In this document: piece after piece, positions 54,119-54,445 of the stretch
Numbering within the stretch: position 1 is the stretch's first letter
Layout of the letters: each line of letters opens with the position of its first letter
DNA from: Niabella yanshanensis
GTDB lineage: Bacteria; Bacteroidota; Bacteroidia; Chitinophagales; Chitinophagaceae
Assembly: GCA_040393015.1 (NCBI GenBank)
Contig: JBEBUZ010000008.1
Location: 472-64,471, forward strand
DNA length: 64,000 nt
Direction of reading: 5' to 3'
Position numbers and translations under genes: made by a program
The notes under the pieces: model-generated
Databases searched by the model: none
What the model was told of the DNA's origin: nothing
The model's input: the letters and a program-made list of their open reading frames with translations, nothing else

Positions 54119-54190
54119 TGCGAGGTAGAGCAGCGGTAGCTCGTCGGGCTCATAACCCGAAGGTCCCAGGTTCGATCCCTGGCTTCGCAA
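54119..54190 (+). tRNA. tRNA-Met (anticodon CAT), initiator-type
   Basis: Hand-folded. Acceptor TGCGAGG/CTTCGCA. D arm GAGC-AGCGGTA-GCTC with A11:U24. Anticodon arm TCGGG-CTCATAA-CCCGA with three G:C pairs. T arm CCAGG-TTCGATC-CCTGG. No encoded CCA. Confidence 0.9.
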
Positions 54191-54197
54191 CAAAATT

Positions 54198-54221
54198 CCC
54201 GCTGAAAGGCGGGTTTTTTTT
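54198..54221 (+). terminator. rho-independent terminator after tRNA-Met
   Basis: CCCGC-TGAAAG-GCGGG followed by T8. Confidence 0.7.
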
Positions 54222-54326
54222 GTGTGTTATCTATAACAGTTCGATAATGAGGCGGATGTGATGTAAGAAGGAGGGCTAAGATCATTTAATGGACGGAAAT
54301 TTGTTTGGAGGTTAATCAGGGAAATT

Positions 54327-54377
54327 TAGAGCTCATATCCGCCGCGGCGGACCCAGGTTCGATCCCTGGCTTCGCAA
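54327..54377 (+). pseudogene. tRNA-Met-derived pseudo-copy carrying the TCCGCCGCGGCGGA palindrome
   Basis: TAGAGC-TCATA, then TCCGCCGCGGCGGA (54338-54351) in place of ACCCGAAGGT. This is followed by 53 nt identical to 54165-54217 (T arm, 3' acceptor strand and terminator stem). Confidence 0.75.
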
Positions 54378-54384
54378 CAAAATT

Positions 54385-54412
54385 CCCGCTGAAAGGCGGG
54401 TTTTGTTTTTTT
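54385..54412 (+). terminator. duplicate copy of the tRNA-Met terminator
   Basis: CCCGC-TGAAAG-GCGGG followed by TTTTGTTTTTTT. Confidence 0.55.
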
Positions 54413-54445
54413 AACCTCGTAGATTTTCAAAACCTACGAGGTTAA
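54411..54445. other. perfect 12-bp inverted repeat (hairpin)
   Basis: TTAACCTCGTAG - 11 nt - CTACGAGGTTAA, directly after the duplicated terminator. Confidence 0.6.

Follow-up and report, generated by a model that had tools for sequence, protein, structure and literature searches.

A hairpin-marked tRNA-Met pseudo-copy in Niabella as the probable end module of a small GIY-YIG cassette beside tRNA genes

GC-rich palindromes in fungal mitochondrial DNA, such as the PstI palindromes of Neurospora that flank tRNA genes and the GC clusters of yeast, are thought to be mobile, and two GIY-YIG restriction enzymes, Eco29kI and Cfr42I, cut CCGC^GG. Among the closest described systems is SegB of phages T4 and T6, a free-standing GIY-YIG endonuclease encoded within a tRNA cluster, which recognizes a T-arm motif in a 27-bp site (PMC2330249) and drives the UvsX-dependent tandem amplification of tRNA plus segB (PMC13096335). 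A further relative, Slx1, is described in two reports as a structure-specific enzyme that cuts branched DNA (PMC8287910, PMC4407285). The present analysis concerns 64 kb of a Niabella contig (JBEBUZ010000008.1; this whole stretch of 64,000 nucleotides is called the window), in which a real tRNA-Met gene is followed by a partial copy of itself that carries a GC-rich hairpin. The pseudo-copy is best explained, with a probability of about 0.72, as the module that forms the right-hand end of a small selfish cassette located immediately downstream of tRNA genes. A complete cassette reads, in order: real tRNA, element-borne terminator, a gene for a GIY-YIG protein of 80-86 amino acids (aa), a relic of the tRNA D/anticodon region, hairpin, the tRNA from position 48 to its 3' end, and native terminator. 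Often the D/anticodon relic supplies the stop codon of the open reading frame (ORF), and the hairpin, TCCGC(C)-loop-(G)GCGGA, stands for tRNA positions 38-47. The window holds the following parts (HMM, hidden Markov model).

54119-54191, plus strand: functional initiator-type tRNA-Met(CAU) (ARAGORN; Rfam RF00005 at 67.2 bits; cloverleaf fold)
54198-54221, plus strand: terminator hairpin and T-run behind the real tRNA-Met, first copy (terminator scan)
54267-54329, plus strand: what is probably left of a deleted GIY-YIG gene, its final ~20 codons and TAG, EGGLRSFNGRKFVWRLIREI and stop (family HMM, frame, junction)
54330-54337, plus strand: anticodon stem-loop relic of the tRNA, AGCTCATA, positions ~30-37 (read from the sequence)
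54338-54351, plus strand: hairpin TCCGCC-GC-GGCGGA in place of tRNA positions 38-47 (sequence, shuffles, cross-lineage stem conservation)
54352-54379, plus strand: right repeat copy, in which T arm, 3' acceptor strand and discriminator region do not differ from those of the real tRNA-Met (repeat search)
54385-54408, plus strand: second terminator copy (repeat search, terminator scan)

A repeat search finds a single direct repeat in this region, 60 nucleotides (nt) long at 97% (54162-54221 and 54349-54408), whose left copy is the 3' part of tRNA-Met from position 48. Its exact 53-nt core (54165-54217 = 54352-54404) is the identity already claimed in an earlier reading of this DNA, made from the letters alone and called here the sequence-only reading. 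The repeat contains the T arm, the 3' acceptor strand and a terminator-like hairpin, which a terminator scan locates at 54198-54213 and again at 54385-54400, in agreement with the claim that the copy has a terminator of its own. On the 5' side of the second repeat copy lie TAG, AGCTCATA and TCCGCCGCGGCGGA, the leading stretch being TAGAGCTCATA; as had been read, CTCATA is retained, and the 10 nt immediately behind it, ACCCGAAGGT (tRNA positions 38-47), are replaced by the 14-mer. The window contains exactly two copies of TCCGCCGCGGCGGA, one at 54338-54351 and the other at 14520-14533, in a tRNA-Gly pseudo-copy 40 kb away. Since 0.09 copies would be expected by chance, and two copies are not reached in any of 100 shuffles even when two mismatches are tolerated, the sharing of the 14-mer by two tRNA species is borne out. 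Two copies in 64 kb, both in tRNA pseudo-copies, are not the distribution of a dispersed repeat of the repetitive extragenic palindromic (REP) or miniature inverted-repeat transposable element (MITE) kind. One loose match to the hairpin pattern, TTCGCCGGAAGGCGGA at 44891-44906, has no tRNA context and was taken as chance.

The copy itself is not a tRNA. The sequence-only reading had taken TTGGAGG as a 5' acceptor strand and had counted a tRNA-like unit of 73-74 nt, but ARAGORN calls just three real tRNAs in the window, none of them the copy, and the stretch in question corresponds to the protein-coding 3' end of relatives. No Rfam tRNA match is found on 54300-54410, even at E<=1, and a covariance-model scan, which had been suggested as a check, is thus negative. 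The predicted fold of the pseudo-copy is not a cloverleaf, and the z-scores of the window folds are marginal, about -2. Behind the second terminator, a hairpin had been placed at 54411-54445. An inverted repeat does exist there, but it extends over 54410-54446, with 18-nt arms (TTTAACCTCGTAGATTTT/AAAACCTACGAGGTTAAA) at 94% and a 1-nt spacer; it lies between the second terminator and era, is unique in the window and is absent at the matching position in four other Niabella loci, and is consequently outside the conserved module.

A comparison within the genus indicates what the pseudo-copy probably belonged to. The Era GTPase of the window is 93% identical to that of N. aquatica and 88-89% to those of other Niabella (Chitinophagaceae, Bacteroidota), and tRNA-Met is also present at the matching syntenic site in four other Niabella genomes. 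In the genomes of N. aquatica, N. insulamsoli and N. yanshanensis, the tRNA-Met at this site, which lies behind a 3-keto-disaccharide hydrolase gene and upstream of era, has neither pseudo-copy nor hairpin. Niabella ginsengisoli (protein P0326; loci L205-207) has an intact element between the same hydrolase gene and era. It begins with an upstream pseudo-copy (decayed promoter, tRNA positions 1-37, TCCGCCAGTTGGCGGA, cccagattcg), which is followed by the real tRNA-Met, a 'cccgcc..ggcggg' terminator and an 81-aa GIY-YIG ORF ending in '…aat ggt TAG'; behind the stop come AGCTCATA, TCCGCCAGTTGGCGGA, cccaggttcgatccctggcttcgcaac, a 'gccgttcgct..gtgaacggc' terminator and 'ttgaattgaagattagtttattttt'. 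The distal terminator and the downstream 'ttgaattgaagattagtttattttt' are native sequence of the element-free N. insulamsoli and N. yanshanensis, and the first terminator of the window is of the same 'cccgc..gcggg' type that separates tRNA and ORF in N. ginsengisoli. A metagenomic Chitinophagaceae contig (L181) reads tRNA-Met, 82-aa ORF, pseudo-copy with TCCGCCGCGGCGGA, and then era. At one and the same site, the element is present (N. ginsengisoli, L181), reduced to a relic (the window) or absent (N. aquatica, N. insulamsoli, N. yanshanensis); like genes of the Seg/Tev type, it is intergenic and variably present beside a conserved target gene.

Two features of these loci may be recorded in their own right. 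In the N. ginsengisoli assembly (GCA_022513635.1), three contigs (L205, L206, L207) share the region FolB ... hydrolase - tRNA-Met - GIY-YIG - era, with era and der split into several short ORFs and with different downstream genes in L206; either the assembly is of low quality or rich in frameshifts, or the locus has truly undergone a segmental triplication. In addition, the tRNA-Met of the window, of N. aquatica and of N. yanshanensis (L001, L003) begins with T and has a U1-A72 Watson-Crick pair, while that of N. insulamsoli and N. ginsengisoli (L002, L205) has C1 and the canonical bacterial-initiator C1xA72 mismatch, a within-genus variation at a position usually held to be an initiator identity element.

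The junction TAG-AGCTCATA-hairpin-CCCAGG is common, base for base, to the window and N. ginsengisoli, and the ORF stop codon of the intact relatives corresponds to the TAG of the window's TAGAGCTCATA. Only 116 nt separate the first terminator of the window from the hairpin, which is too short for the ORF. It is proposed that the nuclease gene was lost from the window by an internal deletion that would have left about 20 C-terminal codons and the stop, and 54267-54329 is a probable, rather than a proven, remnant of this kind. The family HMM aligns EGGLRSFNGRKFVWRLIREI and its stop to positions 67-83, the last 17 of the profile (LKsGkgRefikklik) at its C-terminus; the peptide ranks 5th among 2831 window peptides (about p=0.0016 for one a-priori candidate), and 9 of its 20 residues are shared, by eye, with the C-terminus of the L159 ORF, EKELKSGKGREFIWSLIKLR and stop. 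The remnant is accepted because of the profile match, the reading frame and the identical junction, and not because of DNA similarity. ORF-less mini-units in which nothing but the final ~30 nt of the gene is retained also occur elsewhere, in unit 1 of L093 and in the L116 and L124 arrays, and the Met copy of the window belongs with them. As an ORF-less derivative it is presumably inert, and it has no obvious present function. Because the nuclease gene appears to have been deleted from the window, it was invisible to the sequence-only reading.

The intact form of the cassette was surveyed in a set of 80 metagenomic loci that were selected by protein similarity only, with an alignment of ten of the proteins as the query. 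Among the 69 full-length ORFs with enough flank, 43 have a tRNA-Met(CAT) that ends <130 nt upstream on the same strand, and a TCCGC..GCGGA hairpin lies within -20..+60 nt of the stop codon in 59 of the 80 loci. A piece of anticodon stem-loop equivalent to the AGCTCATA of the window stands at the matching place in 41 protein-selected loci. Intact units are ~0.35 kb and the inserts 0.12-0.4 kb, and the GIY-YIG ORF is their sole coding content. The stop codon often comes from tRNA-derived sequence or from the hairpin itself: in several loci it is in the hairpin loop (TCCGCC-TAA/TGA-GGCGGA), in others it is the TAG of the tRNA D loop (…TAG CTCGTCGGGCTCATA), and in a Victivallales locus it is the TAA of the Asn anticodon loop. 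The architecture is fixed, and ORF, hairpin and tRNA 3' repeat are coupled.

Within this architecture, parts borne by the element are distinct from parts derived from the target. The stem TCCGC(C)/(G)GCGGA has 12 mismatches in 492 stem positions from 41 distinct loci, or 2.4% against the family consensus, while the loops include GC, AC, AT, AA, TA, GA, CG, TAA, TGA, AAA, TCA, AGTT, AGCT, GACT and others. The conserved object is a 5-6-bp hairpin, of which the perfect palindrome with its CCGCGG core is merely the commonest variant. An alignment of the instances, proposed earlier as the way to find the true boundaries, gives a constant stem, a free loop and a 3' flank that matches the host. In 28 loci without further insertions, the 26 nt behind the hairpin (position 48 to the acceptor end) differ from the locus's own real tRNA by 1.5% per site, and the 9-nt piece ahead of the hairpin, the fastest-decaying part, by 10.3% (Fisher p=8e-9). 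The T arms of the hosts differ (CACAGG.., CGGGAG.., CGGCAG.., CAGAGG.., CCTAGG..), yet the 3' flank matches the tRNA of its own host. The tRNA-like flanks are accordingly target-derived, and the identity of the 3' flank to the live gene is maintained, as would be expected of an active direct repeat. In Flavobacterium, closely related ORFs lie behind two different tRNA(CAU) genes, one of them the initiator and the other a species whose anticodon stem is GGAUU. At both sites the terminator between tRNA and ORF is of the same 'CACCAC…GTGGTG' type and the one behind the pseudo-copy is locus-specific, which indicates that terminator, ORF and hairpin travel together.

Several other accounts of the hairpin were considered and set aside. 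An origin from the host acceptor stem was rejected, as acceptor stems vary between hosts and the hairpin does not. A pairing of the hairpin 3' arm with the 3' acceptor strand, as in a tRNA minihelix, appears in one fold of the window but is not kept, by eye, in the second tRNA(CAU) loci. The suggestion that CCGCGG might be the recognition site of a nuclease or methyltransferase, in the manner of a SacII-type site, lost its footing, since the central two bases differ freely from one lineage to another (GC, AC, AT, TAA, TGA, AGTT, others) while the stem is kept; Eco29kI and Cfr42I are, moreover, larger and reside in restriction-modification systems, and CCGCGG is not conserved in the cassette family. 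Other hairpins also occur in these loci. Second types are TCCCGA-loop-TCGGGA, which replaces the T-stem and acceptor region, and CCTGCC..GGCAGG; nested or expanded forms, TCCGCCGCGCCTGTGCGCCTTGGCGTAGCGGA, TCCGCTACGCCACGGCGCACGGGCGCGGCGGA and TCCGCCGCAAAGGACCTGTCCGCCGCGGCGGA (L119 6440-6520; L154, L158, L166; L116 60-190), look like hairpins inserted into hairpin loops.

The cassette was also approached from the side of the hairpin. When one genome per species was scanned for the hairpin sequence followed by GGTTC within 14 nt, at least 120 loci were obtained. Among these listed matches, 95 are chance occurrences, mostly in high-GC genomes (median GC 0.64), and 24 are in low-GC genomes (median 0.39) and adjoin a real tRNA gene, which is tRNA-Met(CAT) in 21, tRNA-Asn in 2 and tRNA-Cys in 1; the listed matches from low-GC genomes are nearly all at tRNA loci. 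These tRNA-adjacent loci repeat the junction of the window, (G)GGCTCATA followed by TCCGCCGCGGCGGA and then by C, T arm and acceptor strand, and they often carry two or three tandem copies. Their hosts are Flavobacterium, Chitinophaga, Cyclobacterium, Chryseolinea, Belliella, Taibaiella and Sphingobacteriales and, outside Bacteroidota, metagenome-assembled genomes (MAGs) of an Ignavibacteriales, a Victivallales and a Doudnabacteria bacterium of the candidate phyla radiation (CPR). In 13 of the listed loci, including the three non-Bacteroidota ones, tblastn finds a GIY-YIG ORF directly upstream of the hairpin. The array of Flavobacterium sp. ST-87 (L082) consists of two real tRNA-Met genes and then three 375-nt units, each with an 84-aa ORF, ATCATAGGGCTCATA, the hairpin, CACAGGTTCGAGTC, a second palindrome (TTCGCCGCGGCGAA), CTACTAAG and a terminator copy.

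The hairpin is consequently not confined to the two copies of the window, a finding that a cross-genome search had been expected to decide, and the idea of a directed process tied to tRNA genes gains from the recurrence of the same junction beside real tRNAs in dozens of independent genomes and metagenomes. The same data bear on chance similarity or an assembly artefact, for which nothing speaks beyond the small size of the cassette. With two copies in the window against 0.09 expected, and with the same junction in isolate genomes, complete genomes and MAGs that are independent and come from many laboratories, the probability of such an explanation is negligible. A separate arrangement is seen in a Chitinophaga pinensis MAG (L012 2465-5674), where three hairpin pseudo-tRNA units of the form …TTCATA-TCCGCCGCGGCGGA-CCCGGGTTCAAATCCCGG… are spaced at ~1.6 kb, with unrelated ORFs (316, 151 and 190 aa) and no GIY-YIG ORF between them; the hairpin-bounded repeat may flank other cargo too, like islets accreted at a tRNA site.

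The proteins of the cassette are a single GIY-YIG catalytic domain of 80-86 aa, with no second domain. The ORFs of the relatives score 50-61 bits with Pfam PF01541 (cut-off 22.6; E~1e-16), and Y7, Y18, G20, R28, H32 and E65 are invariant in the ten-protein alignment, in accordance with the catalytic Tyr, Tyr, Arg, His and Glu. By profile, the closest solved structures are the UPF0213 proteins EF2693 (1ywl, 2.4e-11) and BH0048 (1zg2, 3.5e-10); SLX1 follows at 1.8e-6 to 7.6e-5, and I-TevI reaches just E=0.027. These similarities place the family in the UPF0213/Slx1 clade. Source annotations give only 'GIY-YIG nuclease family protein' or 'putative endonuclease', and no model or match for the subfamily was found in NCBIfam, PADLOC or PHROGs. 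With P0326 as the query, 353 clusters (50% identity) were retrieved at E<=1e-10 from 1.84 billion representatives, and the family is spread over Flavobacteriia, Chitinophagia, Cytophagia and Sphingobacteriia, with sporadic members in Ignavibacteriales, Victivallales and CPR bacteria. Distant members occur at other tRNAs and in other arrangements (L180, L200, L202, L204, L197). In L180 (1668-2330), the ORF ends 3 nt before tRNA-Arg(TCG), and an upstream pseudo-copy has another perfect palindrome, of 20 nt, CCTGCCTGCCGGCAGGCAGG; in L202 and L204, the 3' end of the ORF overlaps, by eye, the 5' end of an apparent tRNA-Arg(ACG) gene; and in L197, the ORF runs into the apparent anticodon loop and 3' half of a tRNA-Phe.

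Set against the described systems, the cassette shares several features with SegB: a GIY-YIG gene among tRNA genes, presence and absence between close relatives, and tandem units of tRNA plus nuclease. However, SegB has a separate DNA-binding part, whereas the cassette proteins are the catalytic domain only, without the N-terminal GIY-YIG plus C-terminal DNA-binding arrangement of Seg/Tev-type enzymes, and are closer to UPF0213/Slx1 than to I-TevI. SegB is also borne by phages and lacks a hairpin-patched pseudo-tRNA, while the cassette is chromosomal in bacteria, and neither its junction nor its protein has a match in the 2.9 million viral contigs of IMG/VR. In size and catalytic residues, the cassette proteins agree with the UPF0213/YhbQ/Slx1 clade, and the cutting of branched DNA by Slx1 would be compatible with a hairpin or a cruciform as substrate; the literature searched yielded no protein of this clade with a link to tRNA genes, pseudo-tRNA repeats or a conserved hairpin. 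The fungal mitochondrial palindromes are likewise short, GC-rich, set in AT-rich genomes and recurrent near tRNA genes, but they have other sequences in other organisms and are not known as substitutions in tRNA pseudo-copies or as coupled to a GIY-YIG gene at a fixed junction.

The resemblance to tRNA-targeting integrative elements requires more consideration. These elements also insert 3' of or within a tRNA, preserve a functional tRNA, produce a direct repeat of its 3' segment, accrete in tandem and are lost cleanly, and flanking repeats of the tRNA 3' part are reportedly the classical signature of tRNA-targeting islands. It could thus be argued that the window carries attL/attR-type scars of a tyrosine- or serine-recombinase element (a prophage, an integrative and conjugative element or an NBU-like element) that entered the tRNA 3' end and was later deleted, in keeping with tRNA 3'-part repeats that flank an insert and with a repeat that has been kept identical. 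This would not account for the constant hairpin or the upstream pseudo-copies, however, and the intact units are ~0.35 kb with the GIY-YIG protein as their sole product. No integrase gene is seen in the inspected parts of the fetched loci, and no match to cassette or protein is found in the 2.9 million viral contigs, PHROGs or PADLOC. A recombinase scar is consequently very improbable. What separates the cassette from such elements is the lack of a recombinase, its length of ~0.35 kb, a repeat bounded by a hairpin (positions 38-47) and the additional pseudo-copies upstream.

One of these upstream copies is the second hairpin locus of the window, which is on the minus strand and has its pseudo-copy upstream of the real gene. 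Its parts are as follows.

14384-14457, minus strand: functional tRNA-Gly(GCC), source of the pseudo-copy (ARAGORN, Rfam)
14496-14562, minus strand: upstream-type tRNA-Gly(GCC) pseudo-copy (sequence, repeat search)
14563-14598, minus strand: duplicated leader of 36 nt ahead of the pseudo-Gly copy, in a 105-nt tandem duplication unit (repeat search)

The direct repeat at this locus (14429-14493 and 14534-14598) is 98% identical. The Gly pseudo-copy keeps the 5' acceptor strand, the D arm, the base of the anticodon stem and the T arm (with a 1-nt deletion) and is without the 3' acceptor strand; the hairpin at 14520-14533 substitutes CCTTGCCAAGG (…CACGA-hairpin-TCGGGG). Copies of this kind form a second recurrent class, situated upstream of a live tRNA. 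They consist of a duplicated promoter or leader, the 5' part of the tRNA and one or two hairpins, and they stop in or just behind the T arm, with no 3' acceptor strand. Members of the class include Cyclobacterium L039, where D arm and positions 38-47 are both replaced in two upstream copies, Belliella L119, N. ginsengisoli (L205) and L051, and it is found in 6 of 46 protein-selected loci. The tRNA-Cys array of L051 has the hairpin in place of the D-loop, the tip of the anticodon stem-loop (…AGCTCT-hairpin-TCGTAC) and part of the T arm, with no GIY-YIG ORF within the 8-kb block; a short tandem repeat, GCTGCCTTCG x4, lies behind this array (L051 6300-6360, minus strand). By analogy, the Gly copy of the window fits the upstream class and would be another recurrent by-product of the same system.

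This variety bears on what the hairpin is. Of the hypotheses put forward in the sequence-only reading, scars of a tRNA-targeting element and a small palindromic replacement element came closest, but a specificity for anticodon arms did not hold up, since D arms, T arms and acceptor strands are also replaced, in a manner that varies between loci. It might then be supposed that the 12-16-nt hairpin is itself an autonomous or trans-mobilized miniature palindromic element that enters the tips of stem-loops, the GIY-YIG gene being a mere frequent neighbor. Such an element would explain the replaced tips of D-loop, anticodon loop and T arm in ORF-less arrays (the tRNA-Cys of L051, the tRNA-Gly of the window), the hairpin-in-hairpin insertions of L116, L119 and L154, and junctions that are often A-TCC...GGA-T(CG). 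It would not be expected, however, to have just two copies in 64 kb, both within tRNA pseudo-copies, and the fixed place right behind the ORF in 59 of the 80 protein-first loci points to coupling, beyond neighborhood. Nor is there an associated transposase-like gene besides the GIY-YIG gene, and each insertion takes the place of 8-12 nt without a consistent duplication of the target. An independently mobile hairpin is therefore regarded as decidedly improbable.

For the cassette as a whole, the following model is proposed. The nuclease would break DNA in or at tRNA genes, and the conserved T-arm/acceptor segment would be the route by which recombinational repair or integration inserts or amplifies the cassette, with the segment left as a flanking direct repeat. 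Recombination between the repeats could then remove the cassette cleanly and give the element-free congeners, and unequal exchange could yield arrays and upstream copies. In this model, the element-borne hairpin would mark the inner edge of the exchanged segment, where it may serve as a structural handle for the Slx1-like enzyme or as a patch of heterology that stops re-cutting or conversion, and it may be copied into other, redundant tRNA copies. A role as a homology-breaker that protects the ORF from deletion is unsupported as the main one, because the repeat runs through an identical terminator in 14 of 36 loci and in the window, leaving 50-75 nt of unbroken homology.

A different possibility is that the hairpin pseudo-tRNAs are functional RNAs, either a non-chargeable decoy or regulator or an RNA partner of the nuclease (antitoxin-like, guide or handle), in which the constant hairpin would bind the protein and the tRNA-matching flanks would give specificity. 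The stem is indeed kept at 2.4% mismatch amid decaying neighbors, its few variants are compensatory or G-T (TCCGCT..AGCGGA, TTCGCC..GGCGAA, TCCGCT..GGCGGA), the pseudo-copies have terminators and those of the upstream type duplicated promoter or leader regions, and the hairpin always lies between two target-matching segments, beside a nuclease without a DNA-binding domain. Yet the units appear to share no overall fold: they differ in what they retain, with T arms that have been mutated or overwritten and acceptor strands that have been lost. The tRNA models do not recognize the copies, the window folds have z-scores of about -2, and a stem conserved in sequence offers almost no covariation. 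At gathering score, no Rfam family matches the pseudo-copies of the window or of six related loci, with just noise at E<=1, and the known GIY-YIG enzymes act on DNA. The decoy or regulatory RNA that had been proposed from the letters is weakened in particular, in that tRNA parts decay or are missing and just the hairpin and the 3' repeat are kept; a functional RNA of any of these kinds is unlikely.

A related idea, judged quite unlikely, is that the hairpin and the two tRNA-matching segments are the nucleic-acid specificity module of a minimal GIY-YIG nuclease of the Slx1/UPF0213 type that lacks further domains. An RNA or single-stranded DNA would pair with the tRNA gene, the hairpin would protrude at positions 37/48, the resulting branch would be cut by the structure-specific enzyme, and repair from the same module would write the hairpin into the cut copy. 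If this were true, it would be a programmable, structure-guided system against tRNA genes, and the 12-16-nt hairpin would be the smallest self-propagating DNA insert known.

It should be noted that several observations weigh against the proposal of a selfish GIY-YIG cassette. As a homing model it has an immunity problem, because the intact tRNA beside the gene stays a potential target, and it does not account for the entry of the hairpin into tRNAs without flanking homology (Met to Gly, Cys and Asn). No intact GIY-YIG gene is found in the 64-kb window by tblastn and HMM, the HMM score of the putative remnant is weak (5.4 bits, E=4.4 for 2831 peptides), and alignment of its DNA to L159, L181 and L196 is no better than with shuffles (154 of 2000 for the best relative). 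There is no trace of an ORF at the tRNA-Gly locus of the window, and for this reason the Gly copy is tied to the nuclease through its shared hairpin and by analogy with other loci. About a quarter of the protein family lacks the canonical hairpin, and some members lie upstream of or overlap other tRNAs. Finally, the nuclease activity of the proteins and their recognition of the hairpin are predicted.

Taken together, the parts of the cassette are of known kinds: free-standing GIY-YIG genes, tRNA-targeting elements with 3'-end repeats, and GC palindromes near tRNAs. What was not found described is their combination, namely a GIY-YIG gene without a further domain, a hairpin that overwrites positions 38-47 (and other arms) in tRNA pseudo-copies, and a chromosomal spread across Bacteroidota. 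The statement that no described system does this still stands after searches of the literature, Rfam, NCBIfam, PADLOC and PHROGs, and full-text literature searches returned no published description of the cassette or of the 14-mer itself. If the proposal is correct, a widespread and unnoticed mobile element of ~350 bp would parasitize essential tRNA genes, above all that of the initiator tRNA-Met, without destroying them. Such an element would leave hairpin-patched tRNA fragments behind and would thereby explain odd tRNA fragments and tandem repeats at tRNA loci in Bacteroidota. The cassette also raises an enzymatic question, that of the source of specificity for an 80-aa GIY-YIG domain that has no DNA-binding domain and is coupled to a strictly conserved 5-6-bp hairpin. 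In parallel to SegB in the T-even phages, it would be a plausible driver of tRNA gene duplication and of changes in tRNA gene copy number.

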